Positions 2,196 through 56,182 of a DNA stretch of 64,000 bases are shown here, one piece after another. This stretch comes from an uncultured Candidatus Saccharibacteria bacterium. GTDB lineage: Bacteria; Patescibacteriota; Minisyncoccia; Phycocordibacterales; Phycocordibacteraceae. The notes below the pieces were generated by a model. It worked only from the letters and a program-made list of their open reading frames with translations, had not been told where the DNA came from and searched no databases. The stretch is taken from positions 962-64,961 of the forward strand of contig CAZYDN010000002.1 of assembly GCA_964646315.1 (NCBI GenBank). The letters are read 5' to 3'. The position numbers were made by a program, and so were the translations under genes. Position 1 is the stretch's first letter; every line of letters starts with the position of its first letter.

Positions 2196-3314
2196 ATGAA
2201 GAAACTACTATTCCTATTCGCCTTCATCGCCGTACTCACTATGACCGCGCCCAGTGTGTCTTATGCGTGTAGTCCAGGGCCCGGCTACCCACCATCTGCT
2301 TCAGAGAATCTCACTAAGAGTGATGTGGCTTTTGTAGGTACGGTAAAAAGTGTTGCTCAGGACAAGAGTATAAACGGTGACTACCACGTCACTTTCGCTG
2401 TCGGCGAAACCTATAAGGGTTCTGTAGGTGAGACGGTGACGGTGCGTACTCGCTCGAGCTCTGCTGCATGCGGATACGACGACGGATATGCAGCATTCAA
2501 AGCTGGCACGGTATGGGCTATTTATGCAGACGGAAACGGAACTGACGGCTATTCTACCGACAGTCTTTCTCTAAACAAAAGCTACAGCTCGGTATCAGTG
2601 GCTACTAAAGCTATGGCCGCTCTTGGCTTCACTCCGGTAGACGAGGAAGAGCCAATGGCGTGTACTCTGCAGTACGCTCCTGTGTGCGGAAAGGCAGCCG
2701 ACAACACTATCAAGACGTATGGAAACTCTTGCGCACTTGCAGCAGGAAAAGCCACTCTTCTCTATGAGGGAGAGTGTAGTGTAGACGCACAAGCTCCAAA
2801 GAAAGACTTGCAGCATGGTAGTCGGGGAACAGACGTAACGTGGCTCCAGCACTTTCTTATAGGAAAGAATGTGGGGGCGGCGGCAAGAGCGCTTATGGCG
2901 GTAGGTACTACAGGCTACTTCGGTCAGCTCACTAAGAACGCCCTCGCGGAGTTTCAAGCTGCATTCACAATCACTCCTGCTCACGGATACTTTGGCGTAA
3001 AGACTCGTGCAGTAATAAACGGGAACCTACACACCCCGACGACATTCACCGGCAAACTTTCTGCAGTAGACACAAGCTGCTTTGCTGATGGAGTTTGTAG
3101 CGTTACGGTGGATGGCAAGAAAGTCATTCTTCTTACAGGTATGCGAATCAATATTCCTCCGGTCGGCTCAATTAAGGGAGTAGAGTCCATTGGCGACCTT
3201 GAGAGCAGGATTGGTTCTGAGGTAGAAGTGTACGCTGTCGCGACGGGGGAGAGTGGTGCAGACTACACCCTCTATGGAAGTACCTCGTACTATGTAAAAG
3301 TATTGGGGAAGTAG
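2196..3314 (+). CDS. secreted multi-domain protein: signal peptide, TIMP/NTR-like OB domain beginning at the mature-protein Cys (CSPGP...SSAACG), Kazal-type inhibitor domain (C-x6-PVCG-x5-TYGNSC), peptidoglycan-binding domain (PG_binding_1-like)
   Basis: The signal peptide would be cleaved after SYA, leaving an N-terminal Cys-Ser-Pro as in TIMPs. The Kazal cysteine pattern and PG-binding-like repeats were seen in the translation. A terminator follows. Confidence 0.65.
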   Translation: MKKLLFLFAFIAVLTMTAPSVSYACSPGPGYPPSASENLTKSDVAFVGTVKSVAQDKSINGDYHVTFAVGETYKGSVGETVTVRTRSSSAACGYDDGYAAFKAGTVWAIYADGNGTDGYSTDSLSLNKSYSSVSVATKAMAALGFTPVDEEEPMACTLQYAPVCGKAADNTIKTYGNSCALAAGKATLLYEGECSVDAQAPKKDLQHGSRGTDVTWLQHFLIGKNVGAAARALMAVGTTGYFGQLTKNALAEFQAAFTITPAHGYFGVKTRAVINGNLHTPTTFTGKLSAVDTSCFADGVCSVTVDGKKVILLTGMRINIPPVGSIKGVESIGDLESRIGSEVEVYAVATGESGADYTLYGSTSYYVKVLGK

Positions 3315-5176: not shown

Positions 5177-5833
5177 GTGGTCTATACTCTCTATATGAAA
5201 AGAATGTCCACCGTAGCGCTCTTGGTACTCGGAACGTCATTTTTGGGGATGCTGTTACTTATGCGGTTTGATCCGGACGACTTCGCGCGTCTCGATACTG
5301 CGGCAACTCTGTTTGCCCAGCAGTTTAATACATGGCAATCAGTGGCACCTCTTATCGCGATTACGACCCTTGGTGGTGTATCGGGCATACTCTTACTTAC
5401 AACGCTTGCCGTATTTCTCTCTCGCCGTGATTCACTCCAGGTAGCGCGCCTCATTTCTGTTGTGGCGGGGCAAGCGCTTAGTGTCTCATTCATTAAACTG
5501 TCTTTGGAGCGCGCACGTCCAGAAACCGTCGATTGGATTGGACCTATTCATTCCTATTCTTTTCCAAGTGGCCACGCGACAAGCACCATAGCTTTGGTGG
5601 GAGTAGTAGCTGTGTATATGTTTGCGCGTGCAAAGTCTAGATTGCATCAGGCTGCAATTGTATTGCTTGCAGTACTATTTGTGCTTAGTGTCGGAATGAG
5701 TCGGATTGCGTTAGGTGCTCATTACGCTTCAGATGTACTGGCGGGTTATTTGCTTGGTGGATTCTGGGTTGCGTTCGTGTTTACTCTCCAACCTCCTAAA
5801 AAATGGCGAAAACAAGACACATTATCTGAATAA
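5177..5833 (+). CDS. PAP2-family phosphatase (phosphatidic acid / undecaprenyl-diphosphate phosphatase-like)
   Basis: Motifs PSGH and SRxxxxxHxxxD seen; membrane protein. Confidence 0.75.
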   Translation: MVYTLYMKRMSTVALLVLGTSFLGMLLLMRFDPDDFARLDTAATLFAQQFNTWQSVAPLIAITTLGGVSGILLLTTLAVFLSRRDSLQVARLISVVAGQALSVSFIKLSLERARPETVDWIGPIHSYSFPSGHATSTIALVGVVAVYMFARAKSRLHQAAIVLLAVLFVLSVGMSRIALGAHYASDVLAGYLLGGFWVAFVFTLQPPKKWRKQDTLSE

Positions 5834-5867
5834 ATATTCGCAAGTATCAAGTGTTACACTTTTGCAT

Positions 5868-6287
5868 ATGCCTACCTATAATCTCTGGATTACCGCAGTC
5901 TCAATGATTCTCTCAGTCGTACTGGGCTTTCTCTGGTACGGTCCGCTCTTTGGTAAGCAGTGGATGGAGCTTTCCGGTATAAAAATGCCCGAAGGAAAAC
6001 CTTCACTGCGCGTCATGATTAAACCTATTGTGCTGTCACTGGTGGGTTCATTTGTGCTGGTGTTTGGGTTGGCTTCAGTCACCGCGTTTCATAATGCGTA
6101 CTGGCACGTGACGGGGTATGCAACTGGATTATCTTTTGCTGTATTCCTCTGGCTTGCCTTTATTGTTCCGCCGTATTTGAACTTCACAGGATGGGAGGGA
6201 AAGCCATGGAAACTTTTCTTCATTAACTCAGGCTATTGGCTCGTCTACTTACTTTTGGTTTCTGTCCTTCTTACCACATTCGGCTAA
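5868..6287 (+). CDS. DUF1761-like membrane protein
   Basis: The start was chosen at the first ATG after the PAP2 gene stop. The ORF-track start at 5715 overlaps the PAP2 gene in another frame. Confidence 0.45.
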   Translation: MPTYNLWITAVSMILSVVLGFLWYGPLFGKQWMELSGIKMPEGKPSLRVMIKPIVLSLVGSFVLVFGLASVTAFHNAYWHVTGYATGLSFAVFLWLAFIVPPYLNFTGWEGKPWKLFFINSGYWLVYLLLVSVLLTTFG

Positions 6288-6296
6288 ACTTTCTCC

Positions 6297-6884
6297 ATGA
6301 AGCTAAATCAAAAAAACATATCGATTCTCGTAATTCTTTTGTTACTTATTGTAGGTTTCTTTATTTGGAAACTGCAGATGCCTGGTAAAGCAGAGGAAAT
6401 TGTTTCGATGGATTTTAAAAATAGTACGTACCGCATTGAGGGTCAGCCGGTTCAATTACAGAATGGTCGTGCAGAGACAGAACTGGCTCCCGGTTCAGCT
6501 TCAAAAATGGTTACACAGTATTTCGGAAACGAACTTCGTACCGACCTTAATGGGGATGGACGCGAGGACGTGGTGTTTCTCCTAACTCAAGCACCGGGAG
6601 GAACAGGAGCCTTTTACTACGCCGTAGCGGCACTCAATACCCCCGAAGGCTGGAAGGGTTCCGATGGGTATTTGCTAGGCGACAGAATTGCCCCTCAGAC
6701 CACTGAAGTAAGTCAAAATCCAAAACATAAAAACGTTATCGTTGTAAACTATGCTGACCGTGAGGCTAGCGAGCCGATGACTACCGCGCCTTCAGTAGGG
6801 AAGAGTGCATACCTCAAACTTGATCCCAGCAGTATGCAGTGGGGAATAGTTGTGGCTAATTTCGAAGGAGAATCGGCGAGATAA
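6297..6884 (+). CDS. hypothetical membrane-anchored periplasmic protein
   Basis: N-terminal TM helix; a terminator follows immediately. Confidence 0.5.
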   Translation: MKLNQKNISILVILLLLIVGFFIWKLQMPGKAEEIVSMDFKNSTYRIEGQPVQLQNGRAETELAPGSASKMVTQYFGNELRTDLNGDGREDVVFLLTQAPGGTGAFYYAVAALNTPEGWKGSDGYLLGDRIAPQTTEVSQNPKHKNVIVVNYADREASEPMTTAPSVGKSAYLKLDPSSMQWGIVVANFEGESAR

Positions 6885-6885
6885 T

Positions 6886-6912
6886 AAAAGGAGGCGATTT
6901 CTCGCCTCCTTA
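6886..6912. terminator. bidirectional terminator (aggaggcgatttctcgcctcctt)
   Basis: Perfect 9-bp stem between convergent genes. Confidence 0.65.
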
Positions 6913-6929
6913 GTTTCGCTCAGCTTCGG

Positions 6930-7355
6930 TTATAAGAGTGTGCGGAACTGCACTTTCACACCGGAATGCGGACCTTTTCCCCACTGCGGAGTACGCAGGT
7001 GCTTCCGGAACAGATCCTGAATTTCAGGTGAGGGAAGCAGAGGAACTTGCACATGTGCGGTACACGGAAGACATACCTCGCCATCTACGTTCACCCACGC
7101 AATAGTTCGATCACAAGGACTGAAAATCTCAGCGCATTCCCGTAGATTGTTGAATCGAACCTTGAGCCACAGTCCCGTTTGGCTCGAAAGCTCAGCCGTG
7201 AGTGACTCCAAATTCCGTTGGAATTGCCCCACGTATCTGCTCCCGACACCCTCCCATGAACAAAACATGTTCAAGAGGTAGGCGACTGCCCGATTCCTAC
7301 GCCTTTTGGGTATTCTGAACATTTCTGTTCCCTTCATTTGCTGGTCTCCTGGCAC
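6930..7355 (-). CDS. hypothetical Cys-rich protein
   Basis: ORF only; an alternative start exists at MFRIPK. Confidence 0.35.
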   Translation of the reverse strand: MPGDQQMKGTEMFRIPKRRRNRAVAYLLNMFCSWEGVGSRYVGQFQRNLESLTAELSSQTGLWLKVRFNNLRECAEIFSPCDRTIAWVNVDGEVCLPCTAHVQVPLLPSPEIQDLFRKHLRTPQWGKGPHSGVKVQFRTLL

Positions 7356-8215: not shown

Positions 8216-10585
8216 ATGAAGGCAAGGCGGGGAATTGTTCTATTTGCGCTGGTAACAGTGGCATTTTTCTGTGGAGGGGCAACCCTTACGCATGCGCAGC
8301 TATCTCTCACTAGTGGAAGTAATGCCACCACCACCCCGAGTGTCGCCACCTCCATTACGGGCTTTCAGATTGTGGGAGACGCTGCTTCAACTACACCGGT
8401 GAAGCTCTACACCACAAGCGGCACGCTCACCATGACGACCACGACGGGTCTTACCTTTGATGGAAGCTCGTCTGGTTCGGTTATTTACTTTAGTGGTACG
8501 GTCGCAAACATTAACGCGGCATTAGCCACGCTTAAGTATTCACGCGCAAGTACTGGTACCGACACGCTCGAGGTATCTCTGGTAAACAACGGCGAAGTTT
8601 TCTTTACTACAAACAATCACCTTTATAAATTTATTACCGGTAGTTACAACTGGAGTGCTGCCAAGACTGCGGCTGAGGGTCTTTCTGCATATGGAGCTGC
8701 AGGATACCTCGCCACCATTACCTCAGATGCAGAGAATACTTTTGTCTCGGGGCGTCTCACGGGCGACGGATGGATAGGAGCGAGTGACTCCGGAACTGAA
8801 GGTACCTGGAAATGGGTAACGGGCCCAGAAGCAAACACCTCGTTCTGGCAGGGTACTGGAGGCGGAAGCACAGTGGGCGGAAACTACGCTCACTGGGCTA
8901 GTGGGGAGCCTAATCAGGCTGGGGAAGAGGACTGTGCGGAAACGTATGTCTCGAGTGGTACCTGGAATGATTTCCCTTGCTCTGCGACACTCGGGTATGT
9001 TGTTGAGTACGGGACCCCAAGCGCATTGCCAACGGTTGTTGCTCGTAATATTTCAGTTGTAACTGCGGACGTGCCGGCAATTACCACGCTCTCGCCAGCA
9101 AACGCCGCTACAAGTGTTAGCAGTACTGCTAATTTGGTTATCGGTTTTAGTAAGTCAGTGACTGCGGGGACGGGGAATATCACTATTAAAAAATCTTCCG
9201 ATGATAGTATTTTTGAAACTATTGACGTAACGGGCGGTCAGGTCACGGGAGGGGGATCAAGTTCAATCACCATAAACCCAACGGGAACATTCGCGGACAA
9301 TACACAATATTATGTACTCGTGCCATCGACTGCATTTAAGGATGGTTCAAACAACTATTTTGATGGTATATCAGCTACAACTACGTGGACATTTACCTCC
9401 GGTGACTTTACTGCGCCAAGCATTAGCTCCGTCACCGCAAGCTCTACAGCCTCTGCTACCGCACAAGTTGCCTGGACCACAAATGAACTCGCCTCATCAA
9501 AGGTTAGCTACGGACCAACTTCTTCGTACGGAACCACCACTACCATTTCTGATACCTCTCCTCGGGTGCTTTCACATACGGTGTCTCTTTCCCGTCTGCT
9601 TGCTTGTACTACGTACCATTACGCAGTGGTCTCTGCAGATGCGTCCTCTAATATTGCTACCTCTACCGACGGCACGTTTATTACAAGTGGGTGCGTGGCA
9701 AGTACTACTCCAACAGCAGCTACTTCTACAAACGTTACCACTAGTAGTGGTGGGTCCACTACGCTCACAAACAGCAATGCCACTATTACGGTGAGTGCTC
9801 CTAGTAACTTCACCGCAACAACTAGCTCAGTAGTCATTCAAGTGCAAGCGATTCCCCAGGCGGACATTGTGGGGACTGTAGGTACACCTGCTTCAGGAGT
9901 TACAAAGGTTGGAACAATTGTGTTTGACGTGAAGGCAATCATCGATTCGAGCACCGTGCTTGATTCGTTTGACGCTCCAGTCACTATTACCTACACCTAT
10001 ACCGATGCAGACATTGCGGGTCTCGATGAGTCCAGCTTAACGCTCTATCACTACCACAACAGTGCATGGATAGAGCTTGATAGCTGTACCGTAACAGCGA
10101 GTACCAATACTATTTCCTGCACAACTCCTAATTTCTCCATTTTCTCTCTGTATGGACAGCCACTCTCGACTGCAAGTACCCGGGGGCGCAGTACCAGTAT
10201 CGCAACAGTATTTGGATGCAAAGATGTAACGGCGGCTAACTACAATTATTTCTCTGTCAGTAAGCCCTCACTATGTGTGTATGCACGCACCGCTACAGCA
10301 TCTGCACCTGTAACATCTGCGAGCATTTTTACTCGTGATTTGAAGACGGGAAGTTCAGGAACCGACGTGCGTGCACTTCAGCAGTTTCTTAATACTCACG
10401 GGTATCCTGTAGCACTGAAGGGGGCAGGGTCTCTAGGAAATGAAACCACTACCTTTGGAGCGCTCACTCGTGATGCTCTAGCGAAGTTTCAGGCTGCAAA
10501 CAAAATTGCACCAACGCAAGGATATTTCGGTCCACTTACTCGTTCTAAAATAGTGGGAATTTTTACTGTTGCGAATGCCCGCTAG
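8216..10585 (+). CDS. large secreted surface protein: signal peptide, canonical C-type lectin domain (WIG..D..EGTWKW..G...W...EPN...EDC...G.WND..C), Ig-like/FN3-like domains, Thr/Ser-rich linkers, C-terminal peptidoglycan-binding domain
   Basis: CTLD signature residues seen in aa about 140-265. The C-terminal block (GTDVRALQQFL...) is related to the C-terminus of the 2196-3314 protein. Confidence 0.7.
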   Translation: MKARRGIVLFALVTVAFFCGGATLTHAQLSLTSGSNATTTPSVATSITGFQIVGDAASTTPVKLYTTSGTLTMTTTTGLTFDGSSSGSVIYFSGTVANINAALATLKYSRASTGTDTLEVSLVNNGEVFFTTNNHLYKFITGSYNWSAAKTAAEGLSAYGAAGYLATITSDAENTFVSGRLTGDGWIGASDSGTEGTWKWVTGPEANTSFWQGTGGGSTVGGNYAHWASGEPNQAGEEDCAETYVSSGTWNDFPCSATLGYVVEYGTPSALPTVVARNISVVTADVPAITTLSPANAATSVSSTANLVIGFSKSVTAGTGNITIKKSSDDSIFETIDVTGGQVTGGGSSSITINPTGTFADNTQYYVLVPSTAFKDGSNNYFDGISATTTWTFTSGDFTAPSISSVTASSTASATAQVAWTTNELASSKVSYGPTSSYGTTTTISDTSPRVLSHTVSLSRLLACTTYHYAVVSADASSNIATSTDGTFITSGCVASTTPTAATSTNVTTSSGGSTTLTNSNATITVSAPSNFTATTSSVVIQVQAIPQADIVGTVGTPASGVTKVGTIVFDVKAIIDSSTVLDSFDAPVTITYTYTDADIAGLDESSLTLYHYHNSAWIELDSCTVTASTNTISCTTPNFSIFSLYGQPLSTASTRGRSTSIATVFGCKDVTAANYNYFSVSKPSLCVYARTATASAPVTSASIFTRDLKTGSSGTDVRALQQFLNTHGYPVALKGAGSLGNETTTFGALTRDALAKFQAANKIAPTQGYFGPLTRSKIVGIFTVANAR

Positions 10586-13517: not shown

Positions 13518-14903
13518 ATGCTTCCCAATCATTCCCCCTGGATTTCCCAATTGAACAGAACGCGCCCCGTCACTCCTCTTGAAGAAGATCTTGTTGCTGA
13601 TGTGGTAATTGTGGGCGGAGGTATTGCGGGAATAATGACTGCGTTTTTCACGCTTCGCGATACCGACCACGCAGTACTACTACTTGAGGCTGATAAAATA
13701 GCGCACGGCGCAACCGGACACAATGCCGGACAACTCGCCACCTACTTTGAACGATCGTTTGCAACACTAGTACAAGAATTTGGACTTACCCTGGCTTCAG
13801 ACGGGCAACGTGCAGTCGAGGACGCTTGGGGACTTCTCGACGAAGTGGTACGTCATGCGAAGCTCTCTACGCCTATTCACCGTTTTACCGGATACGCAGG
13901 AGTGAGTACACTTCCGCAACTCATAGAACATCTTGAAGATACCCGGTTGCGTGTAATTGGCGGTCTCGCTCCGGAGCGAACTATTGTATCGCGAGAGTGG
14001 AGTGAGGTTTCATCCATTCCTTCTCAATTTGAAGGACTATACGAGCTCGGTAGTAGGGATGATGTACTCACGCTTCTTGAGACGCCCCAAAGTGAATATG
14101 TGGCGGCTATAGCTTCTCAAAAGGGATGTGCAAACAGCGCTCTCCTTAGTGAAGAAATTACGGGATATTTACTCGCAACCTACAAAGAGCGATTCAGACT
14201 TCACGAGGGAACTGCCGTAACGGATGTTCGTTTGAAGGAAAAGGGCGCTACGCTCACTGCGATGGGAAAGACTATTAGTGCTTCGCGTGTGGTTCTTGCA
14301 ACTAACGGGTTTGAAAATTTCACTATTTATAACGAACAGGGTTCGGATATAAATACTGCATTTCATCACGAAGTACGCGGACGAATAGGATATATGGCGG
14401 GATACTTGGAACCACGCGCCACTGCTGCTACCGCAATCAGTTACTATCCTCGACCCGCACACATACAAAAGGACCCTACCGGGGATCCGTATTTCTATTT
14501 AACCCGCAGACCTCACGAACACGAGGGAAGTGATGCTTGGAGTCTGGTTTGTGCGGGGGGTCCAGATAAAGTGCTCCCAAATCTTGCTCTCTACTCACGT
14601 ACCCATGGATGCGACGAAGAAATGAAAGAAGAAATTCATGACTTTCTAAGAAAAGGGTACCGACTCTACACTGCAGAAAATACAGACCACTCATTTTGTT
14701 GGCATGGTTTGATGGGATACACCCCTAACCGAGTGAGACGGGTGGGTGTAGAACCTCTCCATCCAGCACTCCTTTATAATCTTGGTTGCAATGGTGTTGG
14801 ACTACTTCCATCCATCATGGGAGGTGCTCGTGTTGCCCAAATTCTAGGTGGAAAGGTGCTCCCACCTTCAATATTTGACCCACTCTCTCATCCAAAAATG
14901 TAG
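13518..14903 (+). CDS. FAD-dependent oxidoreductase (DAO family)
   Basis: The GxGxxG motif VVIVGGGIAGIMTAF is near the N-terminus. Confidence 0.75.
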   Translation: MLPNHSPWISQLNRTRPVTPLEEDLVADVVIVGGGIAGIMTAFFTLRDTDHAVLLLEADKIAHGATGHNAGQLATYFERSFATLVQEFGLTLASDGQRAVEDAWGLLDEVVRHAKLSTPIHRFTGYAGVSTLPQLIEHLEDTRLRVIGGLAPERTIVSREWSEVSSIPSQFEGLYELGSRDDVLTLLETPQSEYVAAIASQKGCANSALLSEEITGYLLATYKERFRLHEGTAVTDVRLKEKGATLTAMGKTISASRVVLATNGFENFTIYNEQGSDINTAFHHEVRGRIGYMAGYLEPRATAATAISYYPRPAHIQKDPTGDPYFYLTRRPHEHEGSDAWSLVCAGGPDKVLPNLALYSRTHGCDEEMKEEIHDFLRKGYRLYTAENTDHSFCWHGLMGYTPNRVRRVGVEPLHPALLYNLGCNGVGLLPSIMGGARVAQILGGKVLPPSIFDPLSHPKM

Positions 14904-14968
14904 TGTATAACTCGTAGTATGAAGAAATCAGGTGGTATCGTTACGGTATACCTACTTAATTAATCTGT

Positions 14969-15355
14969 ATGCTCGAAGTATTCATTGCAAAGCTGTTCGG
15001 TCTCTACCTCATCATCATGGGTGTACTCGTGCTCACGAAGAAGAAGTCAGTCATGCCAGCAGTTATGGATCTGGTGAAGAACCGTGCACTCACGATTGTT
15101 CTTGGAACACTCTCACTTGTCGCAGGTCTTGCCGTTGTGCTTGCCTTCCAGGATGTATCAATGACTCCTACCGGACTCATTTCCCTTATCGGATACATGA
15201 TGGTAGTAGAAGGTATTATCTACCTCGCACTCCCTGTAAAGAGCGTTCAGAAGATGGTTCGCTCTTTCGGAAATAAGCAGTGGTTTATGGTGAGCGGTAT
15301 CGTAGCAGTACTCGCAGGTATCTACCTCGCAGGTTTCGGCTTCGGACTCTTTTAA
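14969..15355 (+). CDS. hypothetical 4-TM membrane protein
   Basis: Hydrophobic ORF followed by a terminator. Confidence 0.5.
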   Translation: MLEVFIAKLFGLYLIIMGVLVLTKKKSVMPAVMDLVKNRALTIVLGTLSLVAGLAVVLAFQDVSMTPTGLISLIGYMMVVEGIIYLALPVKSVQKMVRSFGNKQWFMVSGIVAVLAGIYLAGFGFGLF

Positions 15356-15366
15356 GCGTACGCTTC

Positions 15367-15396
15367 TCCTCATAGTAAAAGCGCCCGAGAGGGCGC
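15367..15396 (+). terminator. rho-independent terminator (aaaagcgcccgagagggcgctttt)
   Basis: Hairpin plus T-run. Confidence 0.7.
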
Positions 15397-15487
15397 TTTT
15401 ACTATTGTGTGCGTTACATGCAAGAAATGAGCTATTCACTGCGTACTATAAGAGGCAGAATCTGTTACACTACAAAAACACTTTTTT

Positions 15488-15931
15488 ATGAAGCACTCAT
15501 ATCTCTTTCCTGTGGCGCTTGCCGTGGTCGCTCTCATATTGGGCGCTGTCTATATGACCACTTCCTCAACACCAACGGACAGGGTTTCATTACCCGCACC
15601 GGAAGTATCGGTACCCCAAGCGAACGTGCCCGAGCCAGGCGACACCTCAAAATCTCCAACTCCTACGACCACGGTTGAACCCACACCTACAGTAACGGGT
15701 ATGTACTCCATGACTGACATTGCCACGCATGCCTCTGCTCAGAGTTGTTGGACGACCATTAACGGGAATGTGTACGACGTTACTGCTTGGATAGCCAAAC
15801 ATCCCGGAGGTGCATCTGCCATTCTTTCGCTTTGCGGCACAGACGGCTCAGCATCTTTTAGTGGGCAGCATGGTGGGCAACGCCGCCCTGAAGCTGAGCT
15901 TGCAAGTTTCAAAATCGGAACACTTAAATAG
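15488..15931 (+). CDS. membrane-anchored cytochrome b5-like heme-binding domain protein
   Basis: TM helix, a Pro/Thr linker, then the HPGG motif. Confidence 0.65.
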   Translation: MKHSYLFPVALAVVALILGAVYMTTSSTPTDRVSLPAPEVSVPQANVPEPGDTSKSPTPTTTVEPTPTVTGMYSMTDIATHASAQSCWTTINGNVYDVTAWIAKHPGGASAILSLCGTDGSASFSGQHGGQRRPEAELASFKIGTLK

Positions 15932-15936
15932 TTACC

Positions 15937-16350
15937 ATGATTATCTTGCATATACTTGCGATATCGGTGACCGGTCTTACGGTGCTGTATTCGGACGAAC
16001 AGGGGCTCATGTGGATGCTCGGTAAGAAGGAATTACTTGATGCGAAGCGAATTGAACTATTGCACACGATAGTAAGTATTGGTCTTGCTCTCGTTATTCT
16101 TACGGGTGGACTTATGGCGCTGCGAGGACTTACGTACTACCTTCAGAATCCGGTATTCCTGATTAAGATGGGCTTTGTCTTCGTGCTCATTGTGAATGGT
16201 TTGTTTATTGGAAAAATTGCTTCACTAGCGACAACCCGTAGCTTCGCCTCACTTACGTCTCGCGAGCGTTTGCCTCTACTGGTAAGTGGCGCAGCATCAG
16301 TTATGGGATGGGCAGGAGCACTCCTTGCTGGTCTTCTTTTGGGTGGCTAG
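15937..16350 (+). CDS. hypothetical 4-TM membrane protein
   Basis: ORF starts 5 bp after the cyt b5 gene. Confidence 0.45.
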   Translation: MIILHILAISVTGLTVLYSDEQGLMWMLGKKELLDAKRIELLHTIVSIGLALVILTGGLMALRGLTYYLQNPVFLIKMGFVFVLIVNGLFIGKIASLATTRSFASLTSRERLPLLVSGAASVMGWAGALLAGLLLGG

Positions 16351-16365
16351 TGCTAGGATAGTGGT

Positions 16366-16788
16366 ATGTGGATTATCTACGCTTCAGGCTCCGCAGTAGC
16401 TGCAGCTGCCGTCGCCATCTTTGGAAAAATTGGCCTTAAGGATATTGATCCTACCCTCGCCACTATTATTCGGGGTGTAGTAATGGCAGTTATTCTTGTG
16501 GCTGCAGGATTCTTATTTCGCAAATTTGAGGGCTTTAATCCGGCCTTAGTGGGTACACGGGCCTGGGTCTTCATCTTCCTTTCAGCACTTGCCGGTGCAT
16601 CATCATGGGTGTTGTACTTTATGGCGCTTAAGATAGGTCCGGCAAGTGCGGTGGCTGTGCTCGATAAGATGAGTGTCGTACTCATTATTATCTTTGCGGC
16701 CGCATTCTTAGGTGAAGCACTGACTGTGCGAAGTGTGCTCGGTATTATTCTTACCGTAGCAGGTACACTCTTACTATTGTTTAAGTAA
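16366..16788 (+). CDS. EamA-domain (DMT superfamily) small transporter
   Basis: 4-TM EamA-like repeat. Confidence 0.6.
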   Translation: MWIIYASGSAVAAAAVAIFGKIGLKDIDPTLATIIRGVVMAVILVAAGFLFRKFEGFNPALVGTRAWVFIFLSALAGASSWVLYFMALKIGPASAVAVLDKMSVVLIIIFAAAFLGEALTVRSVLGIILTVAGTLLLLFK

Positions 16789-16799
16789 CCCTTATTTAT

Positions 16800-17198
16800 A
16801 TGACTGGATATACAGGAAACATTGAAGAAGAAGCTCTAGAAAACGAAGCGTTTCGCAAAGTGCTGTATACCTCTGCGTATATGCAACTTGTCGTCATGTC
16901 TATTCCTGCAGGAGACGACATTGGTGAGGAGACCCACGGACAGGATCAGTTCATTCGTGTTGAGGAGGGAGAAGGGAAGGCGGTGCTCGATGGAGTTGAG
17001 CACGTACTTTCTGACGGGTATGCGGTGGTTATTCCTGCAAGCACGCTCCATAACATCATCAATACCTCTACCAGTGAGCCTCTGAAGCTTTATTCGCTCT
17101 ACGCTCCTCCTCATCACGCAGACGGCACCATACATGCCACAAAGGCCGAAGCAGAGGCTGATCACGAAGAATACCTGGGTGACGTAACGGAGGGATAA
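16800..17198 (+). CDS. cupin-domain protein
   Basis: Cupin_2-like His/Glu motifs. Confidence 0.6.
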   Translation: MTGYTGNIEEEALENEAFRKVLYTSAYMQLVVMSIPAGDDIGEETHGQDQFIRVEEGEGKAVLDGVEHVLSDGYAVVIPASTLHNIINTSTSEPLKLYSLYAPPHHADGTIHATKAEAEADHEEYLGDVTEG

Positions 17199-17238
17199 CT
17201 CACTATAGTGAAGACTCTCCGCCGTATACTGGAGAGAC

Positions 17239-18585
17239 ATGCTTATTCCTTCACAGATACGGCGCCCTAATGCGCTTGGGTACGCACTCGTAGCTCTAGT
17301 GATTGTGTCGCTTGGAGTACTGTCTTCTGCGTATGTGTATACCCAGATAGATCAGTCGGGACGCGAACATATTAAAGATCGTGCACAAACCGTTGCGGAG
17401 ATGTTTCCCAAGGCAGATATAGAGGAACTTGCCGGTGCTTCATACGACCTCGGCACTCCTGCGTATGCGCGAGTGAAGAACACCCTGACCCGCATACGGC
17501 AGGTTAATAGTGATGTACGGTTTGCTTACTTGGTAGGTACGCATTCAAACGGAAATATTTTTTTCTTTGCAGACTCTGAAAACCCATCTTCGCAAGACTA
17601 TTCGCCACCTGGTCAAGAATACGAAGAAGCTTCGCCTGCGATGCACGACATGTTTGAAACAGGTATTCCGGTAACGGAAGGTCCTGATCGCGACCGGTGG
17701 GGAGTCTGGATTTCGGCATATGCTCCCGTGCGTGACGATTCTGGAAAGATTATTGCACTACTCGGACTTGATTTGCCGGCCTCACAATATGTTACGGATG
17801 TTGTTGCGTACTCACTTCTGCCCTTACTCGTTGCTCTTTTACTTCTGGTGCTCATTACCGCAGCAGAACGGATGCATGCGCGGGAATACCGTTCCATAGC
17901 CCAGAAAGCAGAGTTTCTTTCCATTGCGTCTCACGAGATCAGGACACCTCTTACGGGCATACGGTGGGCTGTTGAGTCTATGCTTTCCAGTAGAACGAAT
18001 CCCGTTGCCGGAGAATTAAGAACTACGCTTGAACGCGTGCACGAGGGCTGTCTCATGCTTATTGCGAGGATTAACAATCTGCTCGATGTAACGGCCTTTG
18101 AAAGTCGTGGTGTAAGCGTACTTAAAAAATCAGATATCGATATTCCTTCATTTGTACATGAGATTGTCGAGAGTTTGGAACTATCTGCCATGCAACGGGA
18201 AGTGCGTATTGTTATTGATCCTAGTGTGGAGGAGGCTGGAGTGTTTCGTGCTGACCCTCAAACCATGCATCACGTATTCTTTAACCTCATGGCAAACGCC
18301 GTAAAATATACAAATCCAAACACTGAAGTTCGGATTGCGTATGAACGCTCGCCGCGTATGCATGTTTTCTGCTTTGTTGATCAAGGTCCTGGCATGTCTG
18401 CGCATGACCAAGCTCACATATTCGAAGGCTATCATCGTACTGAAGCTGCAGTACGTTCCGGTCAGTATGGAAGTGGACTAGGACTCTATCTAGCGCGAAC
18501 AGCTGCTGAGCTCCATGGTGGATCGGTGAACGTTATGTCGACCCTTGGTGAAGGAGCCCGCTTTACACTCACTATTCCCGGGTAA
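17239..18585 (+). CDS. sensor histidine kinase (periplasmic sensor, HisKA H-box SIASHEIRTPLTGI, HATPase_c)
   Basis: H-box and G-boxes seen. Confidence 0.8.
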   Translation: MLIPSQIRRPNALGYALVALVIVSLGVLSSAYVYTQIDQSGREHIKDRAQTVAEMFPKADIEELAGASYDLGTPAYARVKNTLTRIRQVNSDVRFAYLVGTHSNGNIFFFADSENPSSQDYSPPGQEYEEASPAMHDMFETGIPVTEGPDRDRWGVWISAYAPVRDDSGKIIALLGLDLPASQYVTDVVAYSLLPLLVALLLLVLITAAERMHAREYRSIAQKAEFLSIASHEIRTPLTGIRWAVESMLSSRTNPVAGELRTTLERVHEGCLMLIARINNLLDVTAFESRGVSVLKKSDIDIPSFVHEIVESLELSAMQREVRIVIDPSVEEAGVFRADPQTMHHVFFNLMANAVKYTNPNTEVRIAYERSPRMHVFCFVDQGPGMSAHDQAHIFEGYHRTEAAVRSGQYGSGLGLYLARTAAELHGGSVNVMSTLGEGARFTLTIPG

Positions 18586-18973
18586 GACCCACAAGACCAA
18601 GCTTCTCGTCAACTAATTTTACGATGCTGTCTATCTGTCGGTCTGACTTCACTACATACGCGACACTGCCACTTTCCATAGCTCGAGCGACATAATCCAT
18701 ATCGCCTGCGTTACTCAAAATAATGAAAGGAGTTTTGTTCTCGGGATGTGTTTCGCGAATTTCTTCAAGCATCTGTATGCCGTCTTTCTTAGGCATCATT
18801 ACATCCATTACAACCGCGTCTGGTTTTTCGGACTCAAAACTACGCAATCCTTCTTCTCCATTGAGAGCGGTCGCTACCTCATACCCAGCTTCTTCAAACT
18901 GATGGGTAAGTGTGACGAGTAGGAGATTATCGTCTTCTACAATGAGGACCTTTTTGCCGTTCTTTTGGTTCAT
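18572..18973 (-). CDS. single-domain response regulator (CheY-like receiver)
   Basis: DD...D...K receiver residues; convergent with the kinase, 14-bp 3' overlap. Confidence 0.8.
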   Translation of the reverse strand: MNQKNGKKVLIVEDDNLLLVTLTHQFEEAGYEVATALNGEEGLRSFESEKPDAVVMDVMMPKKDGIQMLEEIRETHPENKTPFIILSNAGDMDYVARAMESGSVAYVVKSDRQIDSIVKLVDEKLGLVGLTRE

Positions 18974-19016
18974 GAGATTAGTGTAGCATCTTCGAGAGAC
19001 GGGGTATGATTACTTC

Positions 19017-20441
19017 ATGGTACGAAAAGAGAGAATTAGAACCCTTAACAGTGCTGAGAGGCAAGGAAATGGCCCGGTAGTGTATTGGATGAACCGCGAT
19101 TGCCGTATTTCGGATAATTGGGCATACATTCATGCGCGCATCCTTGCACACAAGGCAAAGGTTCCCCTTATTGTTCTTTATAATATTTCTCCAGGATTTT
19201 TAGGTGGCGGCATGCGTCAGCACAGCTTTAAGATAGGAGGTTTGCAAGAGGTGTCGCAGGCTTGTAGTGATGCAGGAACGCCTTTTTTCTTGTGTACCGG
19301 AGACGCTAAGGCGGTAATAGCCTTTGTGCTAAAGCATAATGCTCATACCGTAGTTACGGACTATTCGCCATTACGTATTCAAAAGGAATGGCTCTCTGAT
19401 GTAGTGGAACTTGCGCAATGTCCGGTAGTGCAGGTAGATGCACATAATATTGTTCCGGTATGGGTAACGTCAGCGAAGCCAGAATATGCTGCACGCACTA
19501 TCCGGCCAAAACTAGCGCGATTAGCTCCCCAATTTCTTGAGCCATTTCCCCGTGTACTAGCCTCGGTTCCGACATATAAGGGTGAGGTTCCAGATATCAA
19601 TTGGGAAAAAGTACGTACTTGCAAAGGGCTCACTCCTCACGTGACTGAAGTTGCACACACGTCTCCCGGACATGCTGCTGGCATGCACACGCTTGAGCAT
19701 TTTATAAAAAAGAACCTTTTCCTTTATGGAGACGCAAGAAATGATCCAAATCAAGATGGACAATCGGGACTGTCTCCTTACCTGCATTTTGGACACATAG
19801 CTCCTGCAACCGTGGCTCTCCGTGTGTGTCGCGCGTATGCACTACATCATAAGCAGGCAAAGCAAGCGCCTGCGCAGATACTCTCTCGCCTCATGGATCC
19901 CCGTCGCAATGGTTCTGGAAAGGCACAGGGAAGTGCAGAAAGTTTTATTGAAGAACTTATCGTACGAAGGGAGCTTGCGGATAACTTTTGTGAGTATACG
20001 CCCGCGTACGACACTGTGGAGGGTTTTCCTGACTGGGCGAGGAATACCCTAGAAGCACATCGCGCGGATATACGTCCTTATCTCTATACCTATGGGCAAT
20101 TAGCTAAATCTTTAACTCATGACTCTTTATGGAACGCTGCGCAACTACAGCTTGTGAGGGAAGGTACTATGCACGGATATATGCGTATGTATTGGGGAAA
20201 GAAAATTCTTGAATGGAGTACTTCACCCGAGGAGGCACTAGCGCATGCTATACGTTTGAATGATACGTACCAGCTTGATGGACGAGACCCTAATGGATAC
20301 GCAGGTATAGCGTGGTGCATCGGTGGTGTTCATGACCGACCCTGGTTTAACCGTGAGATTTTTGGCACGGTTCGCTACATGGCTCGTAGTGGGTGCGAAA
20401 AAAAGTTCGACGTGCCCGCGTATATCGCGCGTTACTCCTGA
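19017..20441 (+). CDS. phr: class II CPD photolyase
   Basis: C-terminal RMYWGKKILEWS-type motif typical of class II photolyases. Confidence 0.8.
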   Translation: MVRKERIRTLNSAERQGNGPVVYWMNRDCRISDNWAYIHARILAHKAKVPLIVLYNISPGFLGGGMRQHSFKIGGLQEVSQACSDAGTPFFLCTGDAKAVIAFVLKHNAHTVVTDYSPLRIQKEWLSDVVELAQCPVVQVDAHNIVPVWVTSAKPEYAARTIRPKLARLAPQFLEPFPRVLASVPTYKGEVPDINWEKVRTCKGLTPHVTEVAHTSPGHAAGMHTLEHFIKKNLFLYGDARNDPNQDGQSGLSPYLHFGHIAPATVALRVCRAYALHHKQAKQAPAQILSRLMDPRRNGSGKAQGSAESFIEELIVRRELADNFCEYTPAYDTVEGFPDWARNTLEAHRADIRPYLYTYGQLAKSLTHDSLWNAAQLQLVREGTMHGYMRMYWGKKILEWSTSPEEALAHAIRLNDTYQLDGRDPNGYAGIAWCIGGVHDRPWFNREIFGTVRYMARSGCEKKFDVPAYIARYS

Positions 20442-23400
20442 CTTTGTGGTTGCGTAAGGTATCGTGCGCGCACCTCTTTGCCCGGCCAGCGGTAGTACAA
20501 CACGGGAATAAGTACGAGTGTTAGGAGAAGTGAGAAGGCGAGACCGGCCATAATCGCAAACGCAAGCGGTGCCCAGAATGCCGAAGCGAAGACGAGCGGA
20601 ATCATACCAATCACGGTTACCACCGTTGTAAGGAGAATAGGACGCAGACGAGTAGAAGAGGCGGCAACGACTACTTCCTGGAGGGAGTAATTTGGGTGCT
20701 CAATATGAATGCGAGCGATGGAATCCATGAGAATGATGGCGTGGTTAATAATCACACCTGCCAGAGCAATAACGCCAAGCATGGATGTAAGTGAAAGCGG
20801 TTGCCCTACAAGGGTAAGTCCGAAGAAGACTCCCACAAGTGAAAGGGGGATAATGGCGAGCAAGTAGAACGACTGACGGAATGAGTTAAATTCAAGAATG
20901 AGAATTGAGAGCATGAGCGCTGCTCCAGCGATGAGCGCTACGAAGAGTTCGATAAATGACTTACCCACGTCTTCGCTAGCTCCACCCAACTTCATAACCA
21001 CGCCCGTACCAATCTTGTCCTGCGTAAACTGTTTCTGGAATTCCTTGGTTACTTCAATAGCGTTTGCAGTAGGGTCTACTTCTGCGGTTACGGTGGTGAT
21101 TCGAGTACCCGCTTCGTGCTTTATGCTTGATTGAGCGGATTGGTACGTAATTGTTGCAATGGCCGAAAGAGGAACGGGTCCATGGGCTCCAACAACGGTA
21201 AGCTCGCGTACCGCATCAATGGAGGCATGAGTGGTCTCTGAAGAATCCTTGTAGTTTGGATTTAAGTCGAGCTTGGTTCGCACCTCAATATCATTTGTTC
21301 CGGTACGAATAGATGTAGCTTTCGTACTGAAGAGCGCGGTGCGGAGCGTATCTGTGACCGTCAGAGGAGACACCCCAAGCTCTGCAGCTTTAGCACCATC
21401 GAGCGTTACCACAAACTCAGCGCTCGAGTGCTTGGAATCTGAGTCTAGATTCACCACCCCCGGGATGTCGGAGAGTACATGTACGGCATTATCGGCAGTG
21501 GACGACAGAGCATTCAAGTCGTCTCCTGAGAATGTAATAGTGATTGGTGAAGAAGAAGGCGGGCCACCAGCCGGTTCACTCACCGTAATACTTGCTGATG
21601 TAATTTGAGCAAGCTGTCCTCGTAGCTCAGTCACAAAATCGGCGCTTGTTTGTTTGTGGTGCTTTGGAAGGTTCACCGTGATGTTTCCAATGTTGCTACC
21701 ACTTGTAGGGCCCGAGCCAGAGCCTCCTGCAAAGGAGCTACCAGCCCCTACTTCACTTACGAATGAAGCTACGTTTGGGTTGGTGTAGAGAAGTTCTTCC
21801 ACTTCACGTACTGAGAGGTCAGTACTCGCAAGGTCGCTACCTTGTGGCTTCTCTATCTGCACGTAGACATAGTCGGAGTCGGCGGCAGGGAAGAATATGG
21901 ATTTCAATAGCCCGGTTGAAGGAAGCGCAATAGCGATTACGAAGAGAACTGCAAGCGTAATGAAGAATTTGTTCTGACTCTTTTTAGCGTTGAGCATGCG
22001 AGTCAAATATCCTTCGTACCACGTCTTTGCTATCTGGTTGTATTTTTCCTGGCGGTCTTGCGCGACTGAGTGCGTATCCTTTACGAAGAAAATAGCGAGA
22101 AGCGGTACGAACCCAAGTGCCACAAAGATTGACGCAAGAAGCACGAAAATAACCGTGAACGGAATAGACGCAAGGAATTTACCAACGATACCGGAAAGGA
22201 AGAAGAGGGGAATGAATACCACAATGGTCGTAAACGTTCCTGCGATAAGCGGCCACGCATACTCTTTGATGGCAGCGCGTGCTGCTTTTTGTTTGTCGCC
22301 AAAGGCAAGCAAACGGGTATGGAACGCTTCCACAACCACAATGCCGGAGTCGACGAGAATACCGATCGCAAGAATAAGAGAGAAGAGGGATACGTTGTTG
22401 AGGGTGTTTCCAGAAGCCAGGAGGCCAATAAATGCCACTAGGAATGAAAGGGGAATAGAGGCAGCTGCTACGAGAGACTCTCTCCATCCAAGAGTAAACA
22501 AGAGTACGAGCATAACGAGAACCACGGTCTCAACACCCGCTCGGGTGAGCTCCACGAGACTTTTATTTACTTCCTCTGCACCATTGTAAGAAATTACTGT
22601 TTTAGTTCCCTCTAAAATTCCCTTCTCCAAGTCAGCAAGCTTCTTTTCCACTGCATGACCGGTCTCAACAATATTTCCACCACGACTCTTGTAGATGGTG
22701 AGAGTGAGTGAAGGGTCGGCGGGTGAGCCGTTTACTGAGACACGAGAATAGGTGCTTGGATCTTCCAGTCCGTCCTTAACGTCTGCAACGTCACGCACAT
22801 GGAGTGTGCTTCCACCAGGACCAGCGATAGCAATTCCTGCTACCGCATCGGTTGTGAGAAGTCCGGATTCAAAACGTACTGCATAGTTAATTCCGTCCAC
22901 GGTAATAGAGCCGGCGGGAGAAGAAACTCCAGCCGCACGCAATGCGGAAGTTACGTCAGAAAGGGAGAGGTTGTATTGACGAAGCGCCGCGCCCCGAACA
23001 ATAACCTGCACCTCTCGGTCACGAATTCCCGACACAGAAACTTTAGACACTCCGGACACACGCTTAATTTCGTCACTAACTTCGTCTCCAAGCGTCGTCA
23101 GTTCTTCTGGGGTGAGTTTGCCCGATACAGAAACAATAAGAATTGGTTGGTCAGCAAAGTTAACATCTGAGACGGTAGGTGCTAGAGCCTCTGGAGGAAG
23201 TTCTGGGCGCACCTTGTCCACTGCGTCTTTAAGGAGCTGAATGGATTTATCAATATTTGCAGTAGCGTCGAACTCAACAGAGACTACCGATACCCCGTCA
23301 CCTGAGGTGGAGGTAACTTTTGACACGTGCTCTACACCCAGTACGCCGCTTTCTATTTTGTCGGTAATTAAACGCTCAACGTCGCTCGAGGAAGCGCCCG

Positions 23401-23557
23401 GTAGTACCGTTGCAACAACACCAAGGGGAATGGTGATATCTGGACTAGATTCCTTAGGTATGACGATTACGGCATACAGACCGCCCGCCAAAAGACCGAG
23501 CATCAGAAATACCGTGAAGGTCTGCTTCTTCAGAAAGAAACTCCAGAAATTGGTCAT
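20432..23557 (-). CDS. RND-family efflux transporter (AcrB-like), 12 TM plus large periplasmic loops
   Basis: 1041 aa with RND architecture. Confidence 0.85.
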   Translation of the reverse strand: MTNFWSFFLKKQTFTVFLMLGLLAGGLYAVIVIPKESSPDITIPLGVVATVLPGASSSDVERLITDKIESGVLGVEHVSKVTSTSGDGVSVVSVEFDATANIDKSIQLLKDAVDKVRPELPPEALAPTVSDVNFADQPILIVSVSGKLTPEELTTLGDEVSDEIKRVSGVSKVSVSGIRDREVQVIVRGAALRQYNLSLSDVTSALRAAGVSSPAGSITVDGINYAVRFESGLLTTDAVAGIAIAGPGGSTLHVRDVADVKDGLEDPSTYSRVSVNGSPADPSLTLTIYKSRGGNIVETGHAVEKKLADLEKGILEGTKTVISYNGAEEVNKSLVELTRAGVETVVLVMLVLLFTLGWRESLVAAASIPLSFLVAFIGLLASGNTLNNVSLFSLILAIGILVDSGIVVVEAFHTRLLAFGDKQKAARAAIKEYAWPLIAGTFTTIVVFIPLFFLSGIVGKFLASIPFTVIFVLLASIFVALGFVPLLAIFFVKDTHSVAQDRQEKYNQIAKTWYEGYLTRMLNAKKSQNKFFITLAVLFVIAIALPSTGLLKSIFFPAADSDYVYVQIEKPQGSDLASTDLSVREVEELLYTNPNVASFVSEVGAGSSFAGGSGSGPTSGSNIGNITVNLPKHHKQTSADFVTELRGQLAQITSASITVSEPAGGPPSSSPITITFSGDDLNALSSTADNAVHVLSDIPGVVNLDSDSKHSSAEFVVTLDGAKAAELGVSPLTVTDTLRTALFSTKATSIRTGTNDIEVRTKLDLNPNYKDSSETTHASIDAVRELTVVGAHGPVPLSAIATITYQSAQSSIKHEAGTRITTVTAEVDPTANAIEVTKEFQKQFTQDKIGTGVVMKLGGASEDVGKSFIELFVALIAGAALMLSILILEFNSFRQSFYLLAIIPLSLVGVFFGLTLVGQPLSLTSMLGVIALAGVIINHAIILMDSIARIHIEHPNYSLQEVVVAASSTRLRPILLTTVVTVIGMIPLVFASAFWAPLAFAIMAGLAFSLLLTLVLIPVLYYRWPGKEVRARYLTQPQSQE

Positions 23558-23558
23558 G

Positions 23559-25103: not shown

Positions 25104-25181
25104 AGAGACATATATTGTATACCAAAATATTAGATATGTCAATTATCGCGCGGTCAAGCTTGCACATGCACATGGGGTGGG

Positions 25182-33579: not shown

Positions 33580-34299
33580 TTGCGTAACGTTATGGAACAG
33601 ACAAAATCTAGTGGATTCATCGAGAAATACCTCACGCCGATCGCGGTGATTGTGGGAGCCGGTATTATTGCTCTTGCGTTCATGTTTGGCCAGGGAGGAG
33701 GAGCTAAGCCAGGTGCTCAGCAGCCAGCAATTGCGGTAGATGTGAAGGATGTGAAAACAGATGGGGTGCCATTTATTGGAAGTCCAACGGCACCAGCAAC
33801 ACTTGTTGTTTGGTTTGACTACCAGTGCCCATTTTGTAAACAATTTGAGCAAACAATCACTCCTCAGCTTATTGAGAACTATGTGAAGACAGGTAAGCTC
33901 AAAATTGTATTCAAGGACTTCCAGTTCCTTGGAGAGGATTCTGTAACCGCATCATTGTTCGCACATGCGGTATGGGAGTCTAGTCCGGAGAGCTACCATG
34001 AGTGGCTTACTGCCGTAATGGATGCTCAGGACGATGAAGGAGATCAGGGCTTTGGTGACCTTGCTTCCATCGAAAAGGTAACTAAAGAAAAGGTTCCTGC
34101 CATCGACACTGAAAAAGTAAAAGCACTTATGGTAAGTAAGAAGGCTGAGTACACGAAGTCTATGAATGATTCGCGTGCTGAAGGATCTTCGTTTGGAATT
34201 AACGGTACGCCAAGCGTTATCGTCGGCACCAAGCTTCTTTCTGGAGCAGTACCGTACGCTACTATTGCGGCTGCTATCGACGAGTCACTTAAGAAATAA
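33580..34299 (+). CDS. DsbA-like thiol:disulfide oxidoreductase (CPFC active site), membrane-anchored
   Basis: CxxC in a thioredoxin fold context. Confidence 0.75.
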   Translation: MRNVMEQTKSSGFIEKYLTPIAVIVGAGIIALAFMFGQGGGAKPGAQQPAIAVDVKDVKTDGVPFIGSPTAPATLVVWFDYQCPFCKQFEQTITPQLIENYVKTGKLKIVFKDFQFLGEDSVTASLFAHAVWESSPESYHEWLTAVMDAQDDEGDQGFGDLASIEKVTKEKVPAIDTEKVKALMVSKKAEYTKSMNDSRAEGSSFGINGTPSVIVGTKLLSGAVPYATIAAAIDESLKK

Positions 34300-53728: not shown

Positions 53729-53816
53729 GGAGGCGTCGCATAGCGGTCTAGTGCACCATCTTGGAAAGGTGGCGTGTCGAAAGATACCGAGAGTTCGAAT
53801 CTCTCCGCCTCCGCCA
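53729..53816 (+). tRNA. tRNA-Ser (anticodon GGA), long variable arm, CCA encoded
   Basis: Hand-folded: acceptor GGAGGCG/CGCCTCC, anticodon stem CCATC/GGTGG, loop TTGGAAA, T-arm GTTCGAATC. A TGTGATATAA -10 lies upstream. Confidence 0.85.
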
Positions 53817-56163: not shown

Positions 56164-56182
56164 AGCGTGGTATAATATATAC

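Follow-up and report, generated by a model that had tools for sequence, protein, structure and literature searches.

The 64,000-nucleotide stretch of contig CAZYDN010000002.1 that was analyzed here, in the following called the window, encodes a protein that is probably a surface lectin of the Candidatus Paceibacterota, secreted by the Sec pathway, bound non-covalently to the peptidoglycan (PG) of its producer and directed to mannose-type sugars on another surface. Its gene is an open reading frame (ORF) on the forward strand at 8216 to 10585, which has an ATG start and a stop codon within this interval and is translated into 789 amino acids (aa). The protein carries a C-type lectin-like domain (CTLD), which, judged from its sequence and its predicted structure, is a canonical carbohydrate-recognition domain (CRD) apart from the absence of the C1-C4 disulfide. 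The most likely function of the domain, as predicted from its residues, is that of a Ca2+-dependent lectin for sugars of the mannose (Man), N-acetylglucosamine (GlcNAc), glucose (Glc) and fucose (Fuc) type.

Exact matches to the protein were found on eight contigs and at NCBI, where it is deposited as MBP7741548.1 (source: metagenome-assembled genome (MAG) GCA_018000015.1) under the title "Ig-like domain-containing protein" of a Candidatus Pacebacteria/Paceibacterota bacterium. Candidatus Paceibacterota is the phylum Minisyncoccota in the current NCBI taxonomy.

The predicted calcium and sugar-binding site

A first-pass annotation of this DNA had claimed a canonical CTLD on the 789-aa ORF, and this was borne out by a Pfam search, in which Lectin_C matched aa 161-262 with an E value of 4e-12 and a score of 47.3 bits (cutoff 22.6). 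All motifs that had been quoted for the domain are present, i.e., W186-I-G-A-S-D191, E195-G-T-W-K-W200, E231-P-N233, E238-D-C240, and W250-N-D252. The predicted structure has the double-loop alpha/beta fold of CTLDs and is of the animal CRD type, not of the type of Mtd or the formylglycine-generating enzyme (FGE), which the annotation had named as the counter-case together with a missing Lectin_C match. A sequence search against the chains of the PDB retrieved only animal C-type lectins, with CLEC4F, SIGNR1, DC-SIGN and langerin at E values of 1e-10 to 1e-7, and 90 CTLD sequences of the PDB matched at E<=0.01. The block W-x-x-GEPNxxGEEDC...WND can be aligned with SIGNR1 residue for residue.

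Conservation was analyzed with the best 120 of 835 relatives, which had been identified by a full-length search in which 8,000 candidates were scored. In the alignment of these 120 orthologues the putative ligands of Ca2+ site 2 and of the sugar (E231, P232, N233, E238, N251, D252) are invariant, as are the Ca2+ site 1 ligands D191, E195 and D239. Position 234 is Q in the query and D in the consensus, and therefore an oxygen ligand of Ca2+ site 1 is retained. We take the site 1 ligands to be equivalent to D161, E165, N188 and D194 of mannose-binding protein A (MBP-A). The structural tryptophans W186, W198, W200, W227 and W250 and the C2-C3 disulfide pair C240/C255 are also present and invariant. 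Residues at the rim of the site (209, 223, 237, 249, and 256-259) vary, with entropies of 2.1-2.8 bits. The earlier claim of a complete EPN/WND site for Ca2+ and sugar on a secreted multi-domain protein thus stands as far as the residues are concerned.

Domain architecture and predicted attachment to the cell wall

The N-terminus resembles a signal peptide, with a basic start, a hydrophobic core, an A-x-A-like THA site, and no lipobox. In the AlphaFold2 (AF2) model only aa 5-19 of this segment form a helix, at low predicted local distance difference test (pLDDT) values, and identity among orthologues is 22%. A domain of about 100 aa (aa 28-130), which the first-pass annotation had missed, precedes the CTLD. 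This N-module is modeled as a beta-sandwich with one helix, and a predicted template modeling (pTM) score of 0.90 for the head model suggests that it is packed rigidly on the CTLD. It matched no Pfam or NCBIfam family, and a weak link to B4GALNT1 is the sole lead from the searches.

The Ig-like and FN3-like domains that had been proposed to accompany the CTLD were recovered, namely as a Big_5 domain (aa 287-394, E 3e-11) and as an FN3-like domain with similarity to Pur_ac_phosph_N (E 2e-7). The proposed threonine-rich linkers need revision. A segment with 59% serine plus threonine exists at aa 494-520, but it is modeled as ordered strands, and the truly flexible linker is found at aa 649-706. 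The third sandwich region has a weak similarity to PGF_pre_PGF, which is below the threshold (E 8e-4). The linker contains a small cysteine-bounded loop, GCKDVTAANYNYFSVSKPSLC (aa 667-687, 10214-10276 of the window, pLDDT 65-79), and only about 40% of the orthologues have its two cysteines, C668 and C687. Two other cysteine pairs, 464/493 and 624/635, are invariant, and a DsbA-like gene is located in the window at 33580-34296; both are consistent with an oxidizing extracytoplasmic location of the protein.

The C-terminus is formed by PG_binding_1 (PF01471), which matches aa 714-778 with an E value of 2e-10 and 41.2 bits (cutoff 23). The protein ends with this globular three-helix module, the last residues being ...IVGIFTVANAR, and no sortase signal of the LPXTG type was seen near the C-terminus. 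The description as a wall-anchored protein can therefore be kept in the sense of a predicted non-covalent binding to PG, and covalent anchoring is not indicated by the sequence. A second secreted protein of the window (2196-3314, forward strand, 372 aa) had been thought to share the C-terminal module. Its PG_binding_1 domain is indeed 48% identical to that of the lectin over 75 aa (E 2e-14), but it is internal (aa 203-276). Ahead of it, this second protein has a cysteine motif similar to Kazal-type inhibitors (Kazal_1, E 9.5e-5, 22.8 bits, cutoff 21), and from its sequence it may be a wall-bound protease inhibitor.

A conserved family with exchangeable anchors

The best 120 relatives have lengths of 756-1,122 aa and are 51-85% identical to the query, and nearly all of them have kept the order of Lectin_C, Big_5, FN3-like domain and PG_binding_1. 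Their source labels are Patescibacteria, Paceibacterota or Minisyncoccota, and some of them already have the NCBI title "lectin-like protein". In a collection of species-representative genomes, 62 related loci were found in 62 different genome records, nearly all of them Patescibacteria MAGs from soil, groundwater, lakes, sea water and activated sludge. For many of the MAGs with orthologues (loci L007-L060) the record title is "uncultured Candidatus Saccharibacteria" or even "Gammaproteobacteria". The lectin genes of these MAGs, however, share 51-66% identity with the Paceibacterota protein and are found on contigs of CPR size, and such automatic labels of taxonomy do not seem trustworthy. Identity to the query drops from the head, which consists of the N-module and the CTLD, towards the anchor (Table 1). 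The family is already annotated automatically in databases, and it is conserved, uncharacterized, present throughout the Candidate Phyla Radiation (CPR), and distinctive in its architecture. No account of it was found in the literature; searches for canonical C-type lectins in the CPR retrieved only papers related to diversity-generating retroelements (DGRs), and no mention of the MAG accession was found in papers.

The distribution of the head is much wider than that of the complete protein. The first-pass annotation had called such CTLDs rare in bacteria, which is true only in relative terms. When the head (aa 28-272) was compared with HMMER to 1.84 billion representatives of clusters at 50% identity, 12,082 representatives matched at E<=1e-3, 3,843 at E<=1e-10, and 565 at E<=1e-30. 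The closest relatives come from bacteria and show identities of 35-63% and E values down to 6e-35. Among 187 motif-matched CTLD units of the best 148 representatives, the EPN motif was present in 159, QPD in 16, and WND in 169. The occurrence of both EPN and QPD units suggests that the animal code for Man versus galactose (Gal) is used in bacteria too.

The proteins that carry this head differ in their C-termini. In a protein of 1,153 aa from the Flavobacteriaceae, the N-module and the CTLD form the N-terminal tip. Numerous repeats come next, and the C-terminal sequence reads as a sorting domain of the type IX secretion system (T9SS). Small proteins (about 200 aa) with the CTLD as their only domain have an anchor of the PEP-CTERM type. 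Among these sequences the head stays the same, and the anchor depends on the lineage. The swapping of anchors implies that the C-terminus fixes the protein to its producer while the head is directed outward, and this is the strongest computational argument for the proposed orientation.

Several of the wider relatives have multiplied their CTLDs. P0163 (6,674 aa, 27 matched stretches), P0185 and P0161 are giant bacterial proteins with long tandem CTLD arrays. Furthermore, an ORF of a Saprospiraceae MAG (L061, 3064-10605, more than 2,513 aa) has two tandem cassettes of N-module and CTLD at 5761-7314, and their identity of 99.2% over 783 nt indicates a very recent internal duplication.

Proposed mechanism and its alternatives

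How episymbionts of the CPR/Patescibacteria find and bind their hosts has been described as largely unknown, and no lectin has been pinned down (PMC11623550, PMC10936435). Recognition of glycans has been proposed for host binding in the CPR, and binding that can be inhibited by sugars has been reported for Saccharibacteria (PMC11623550). Paceibacteria attached to methanogens highly express extracellular proteins with PG-binding and Ig-like domains (PMC10936435). The supplements of that metatranscriptome study contain no mention of a lectin, and its PG-binding-domain proteins are at most possible homologues of the lectin family.

The mechanism proposed here deduces secretion, binding to the own wall, Ca2+ dependence, the class of sugar and, above all, the biological ligand from the observed ORF and architecture, the predicted CTLD fold, the invariance of the ligands, the conservation of the family and the swapping of anchors. 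The protein would be exported by the Sec pathway and its signal peptide removed, and the C-terminal PG_binding_1 module would hold the PG of the producer non-covalently. The flexible linker and the three beta-sandwich modules would serve as a stalk, from which the rigid head would point outward. As a rough estimate, based on five modules of about 4 nm and the 58-aa linker, the CRD could be some tens of nanometers away from the wall. The CTLD would hold Ca2+ at the two canonical sites, and the EPN/E/WND site would ligate the equatorial 3- and 4-hydroxyls of Man, GlcNAc, Glc or L-Fuc. The likeliest target would be a glycan of a partner or host microbe, or a polysaccharide of the surrounding matrix. 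Since there is one CRD per chain and no oligomerizing neck, avidity would have to come from many copies on the cell surface. The origin of the orthologues from soil, groundwater, lake, marine and sludge MAGs implies that any host would be a microbe and not an animal. The PG genes MurJ and YceG are located in the same window. From the sequence, a role as adhesin or lectin is the most reasonable reading.

Several points weigh against this proposal. All members of the family are known from sequence and prediction alone, and the PDB matches listed do not include any bacterial protein, so that a structure would also help to trace where the CTLD came from in evolution. A153, which is invariant, and V263 stand in the places of the canonical C1 and C4, and thus the C1-C4 disulfide is missing; close bacterial relatives do not have any cysteine, and therefore the two-disulfide feature is not universal in the bacterial clade. 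The exposure of the sugar site beside the N-module is an assumption of the model, and the PG_binding_1 module could in principle bind the wall of a host instead of the own wall. Gene context did not point to a functional partner, because a tblastn search with 14 flanking genes against the 62 loci revealed synteny only in the two closest relatives. Finally, the head is more conserved than stalk and anchor (72% and 68% versus 46% for the anchor), unlike a host-range determinant under diversifying selection.

The last point leads to the alternative that survives best, namely a lectin for the own envelope or the community. The head could bind the producer's own glycosylated S-layer, a secondary wall polymer or a shared biofilm matrix, and it could tie that layer to the PG or lead to auto-aggregation. 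The head is the best-conserved region in 120 species-level orthologues, and its primary site is invariant; this pattern fits one conserved ligand, possibly self, as well as host recognition. The single locus in each of the 62 genome records and the absence of a second lectin copy in the 64-kb window are in line with this alternative, as is the presence of a glycan or wall binder at either end of the protein, and neither pili nor secretion systems nor other genes of symbiosis could be linked to it. However, Bacteroidota have the same head at the tips of surface proteins of great length, and it also occurs in tandem arrays with as many as 27 matched stretches, which is typical of outward-reaching adhesins, and the variable rim residues leave room for extended ligands that are species-specific. 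We therefore regard self-binding as possible, but rather unlikely; if it were true, this would be a more ordinary finding.

Many CTLDs are not lectins, and the structural neighbors of the domain include tetranectin, ovocleidin and natural killer (NK) receptors. The ligand might thus be a protein or a mineral, as for the CTLDs of NK receptors, antifreeze proteins and eggshells, and the sugar motifs might be vestigial. Such CTLDs have lost the EPN/WND/E ligands, in contrast to their invariance in the 120 orthologues. Invariant ligands together with the alternation of EPN and QPD in the wider family would be expected only of a site that is in use, and a non-lectin function is thus improbable.

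The first-pass annotation had pointed out that CTLD proteins are the usual targets of DGRs. The CTLD might thus be a variable region (VR) that a reverse transcriptase (RT) from another part of the genome rewrites after a template repeat (TR). In favor of this, DGRs are abundant in the CPR, and their targets adopt C-type-lectin folds (PMC8144416). The annotation had also remarked that neither an RT nor a TR is visible in the window, and this was confirmed by repeat searches and Pfam scans. No self-match of at least 50 nt was found in the window at E<=1e-3, and the CTLD had no partner among the seed-10 repeats. RVT families were absent from the precomputed Pfam hits, which cover about 1-20.6 kb of the window, and from 20 larger ORFs (224-817 aa) of the region from 20 to 64 kb, in which not every ORF was scanned. 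VRs are located at the C-termini of DGR targets (PMC8144416), whereas the CTLD occupies aa 131-268 of 789 and the C-terminus is PG_binding_1. Moreover, the predicted fold is of the animal CRD type. The 2,370-nt gene has no differences in six assemblies from six runs, the 90% cluster of the protein has a single member, and the binding residues are invariant in the orthologues. The proposed link was therefore rejected on five independent grounds (repeats, RT, position of the CTLD, fold, and invariance), the repeat search having covered the window and the RT search the scanned ORFs in it, and a DGR target, even one served by a distant RT in trans, is very improbable.

That a C-type lectin gene was recently gained from an animal by horizontal transfer, or that animal DNA is present as a contaminant, might be suspected from the great closeness of the GEPNxxGEEDC...WND block to SIGNR1, yet it is similarly remote. 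The bacterial relatives are 35-63% identical, versus about 25-29% for animal CRDs (E about 1e-10), and the 565 cluster representatives at E<=1e-30 match a bacterial head. The GC content of the gene (48-50%) is the same as that of the flanking DNA, its neighbors are bacterial housekeeping genes, and the CTLD shares its chain with Big_5 and PG_binding_1, which are bacterial domains. A recent transfer was thus rejected on the basis of the relatives and the GC content. An origin from a phage or endolysin was also rejected, because PHROG endolysin matches are confined to aa 655-780, the PG-binding module, and the only matches in BFVD were CTLDs from viruses of eukaryotes.

Implications

A wider reading is offered tentatively, namely that the conserved single-copy lectin is a main device of the ultrasmall Paceibacterota/Minisyncoccota for recognizing and holding partner glycans, that the complete CRD is ancient in bacteria, and that the N-module is associated with glycans. 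If this were true, it would represent recognition between prokaryotes by a C-type lectin, with bacterial or archaeal partners. Together with hundreds of bacterial heads with EPN or QPD, it would show that the complete Ca2+-dependent CRD and its Man/Gal switch go back to an ancient module for adhesion in bacteria rather than to an innovation of animals. The N-module would be a new glycan-associated accessory domain, which animal GT12 glycosyltransferases (B4GALNT1) would have as their non-catalytic domain as well. The family is relevant to the history of the CRD before the metazoans and is a concrete handle on glycan-mediated partner recognition. It is conserved and easily expressed, and its canonical site can be tested by mutation, an exchange of EPN to QPD being expected to switch the specificity from mannose-type to galactose-type. 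A labeled head might be used as a probe for partner cells in the communities of origin.

Features of the lectin gene and other genes of the window

The features of the lectin gene are summarized in Table 1.

Table 1. Features of the lectin gene, with coordinates in the window and mean identity to the query in the best 120 orthologues.
Feature	Residues (aa)	Window	Strand	Mean identity	Basis and remarks
Complete lectin gene	1-789	8216-10585	+		ORF, translation, exact protein matches
Signal peptide, cleavage MKARRGIVLFALVTVAFFCGGATLTHA/Q	1-27	8216-8296	+		Predicted, read from sequence
N-module, beta-sandwich and one helix (VANINAAL)	28-130	8297-8605	+	72%	No Pfam/NCBIfam family; best-conserved domain
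Canonical C-type lectin domain (CRD)	131-268	8606-9019	+	68%	Pfam Lectin_C
EPN triad, putative Ca2+ site 2 ligands and mannose-type specificity determinant	E231, P232, N233	8906-8914	+		120/120 orthologues; aligns with SIGNR1 EPN
Putative Ca2+ site 2 (E238), Ca2+ site 1 (D239), first Cys of C240-C255	E238, D239, C240	8927-8935	+		120/120 orthologues; aligns with SIGNR1 EEDC
WND, putative rest of Ca2+ site 2 and sugar ligands	W250, N251, D252	8963-8971	+		120/120 orthologues
Big_5 bacterial Ig-like domain, first stalk module	285-396	9068-9403	+	63%	Pfam; all-beta, pLDDT >90
FN3-like domain, invariant pair C464/C493	397-493	9404-9694	+	58%	Pur_ac_phosph_N E 2e-7, fn3 E 0.017
Ser/Thr-rich start (494-520) and third beta-sandwich (521-648), invariant C624/C635	494-648	9695-10159	+	57% (third sandwich)	AF2 strands, pLDDT 90-97
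Flexible linker, optional Cys loop C668...C687	649-706	10160-10333	+	19%	pLDDT 39-79; length 39-171 aa among orthologues
PG_binding_1 module, predicted non-covalent PG anchor	707-789	10334-10582	+	46%	Pfam; three helices, pLDDT 93-97

Other genes of the window deserve mention. The region 20432-25142 on the reverse strand encodes a transporter of the resistance-nodulation-division (RND) type (ACR_tran, 1,041 aa) beside a membrane-fusion protein of the HlyD family. Such a pair, similar to tripartite efflux systems, is usually found in bacteria with two membranes and is unexpected in a CPR genome that is thought to be monoderm. The genes at 13518-20441 are unusual for a minimal CPR genome as well, i.e., a DAO-type oxidoreductase, cytochrome b5, a cupin, an EamA transporter, a HisKA/response-regulator pair, and a DNA photolyase, and this cluster suggests an oxic or light-exposed habitat. 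For the ORFs at 38463-39647 (394 aa) and 53878-54975 (365 aa), both on the forward strand, Pfam gave no match at E<=0.001. Two genes for structured RNAs, and no others, were detected in the window, namely those of a bacterial class A RNase P RNA (56181-56528, forward strand, 118 bits) and of tRNA-Ser(GGA) (53729-53816, forward strand).

Comparison with known systems

The domain is most readily compared to the mannose-type CRDs of animals, e.g., those of DC-SIGN/CD209, SIGNR1, langerin, collectin-11, MBP and SP-D. It differs from them in the missing C1-C4 disulfide (A153/V263) and in an additional insert, AYGAAG, ahead of beta2, which lies inside the GYLATITSxxEN motif of the bacterial clade. 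In addition, the bacterial lectin does not have a coiled-coil neck for oligomerization, and instead has a rigidly packed beta-sandwich ahead of the CTLD, a bacterial stalk and a PG-binding anchor; its sugar binding is predicted. RegIII family C-type lectins offer another animal parallel, since HIP/PAP binds the glycan chains of PG via an EPN motif. RegIII proteins are Ca2+-independent and bactericidal, whereas the lectin keeps the full set of Ca2+ ligands and has a separate domain for PG binding.

The closest sequence relatives are the PEP-CTERM CTLD proteins of about 200 aa and the giant proteins of Bacteroidota (35-63% identity), which have the same GYLATITS, EPN and WND signatures. The giants also have the same cassette of N-module and CTLD at the N-terminal tip. 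The anchor of these relatives is of the PEP-CTERM or T9SS type instead of PG_binding_1, many of the PEP-CTERM forms have no cysteine at all, and some relatives contain tandem CTLD arrays. They are equally uncharacterized.

The variable proteins of DGRs, like Mtd of the Bordetella phage, TvpA of Treponema, and targets in CPR and DPANN genomes, are frequent in the CPR and are also called ligand binders with a "C-type lectin fold". These proteins have a CLec fold of the FGE/Mtd type without a Ca2+/EPN site, their VR is C-terminal, and a TR and an RT belong to the system. The lectin shows none of these traits.

In functional logic the lectin is the same as two bacterial systems of unrelated fold. 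The ice-binding adhesin of Marinomonas carries MpPA14, a distal sugar module that binds diols via Ca2+, on a long repetitive stalk, and it is involved in cell-cell association (PMC8092209). Lectin-like minor pilins have been proposed for Saccharibacteria. The PA14 fold of MpPA14 and the L-type or PLL-like folds of the minor pilins are unrelated to the CTLD, and export and anchoring, by the type I secretion system (T1SS) and type IV pili, respectively, also differ from those predicted for the lectin.

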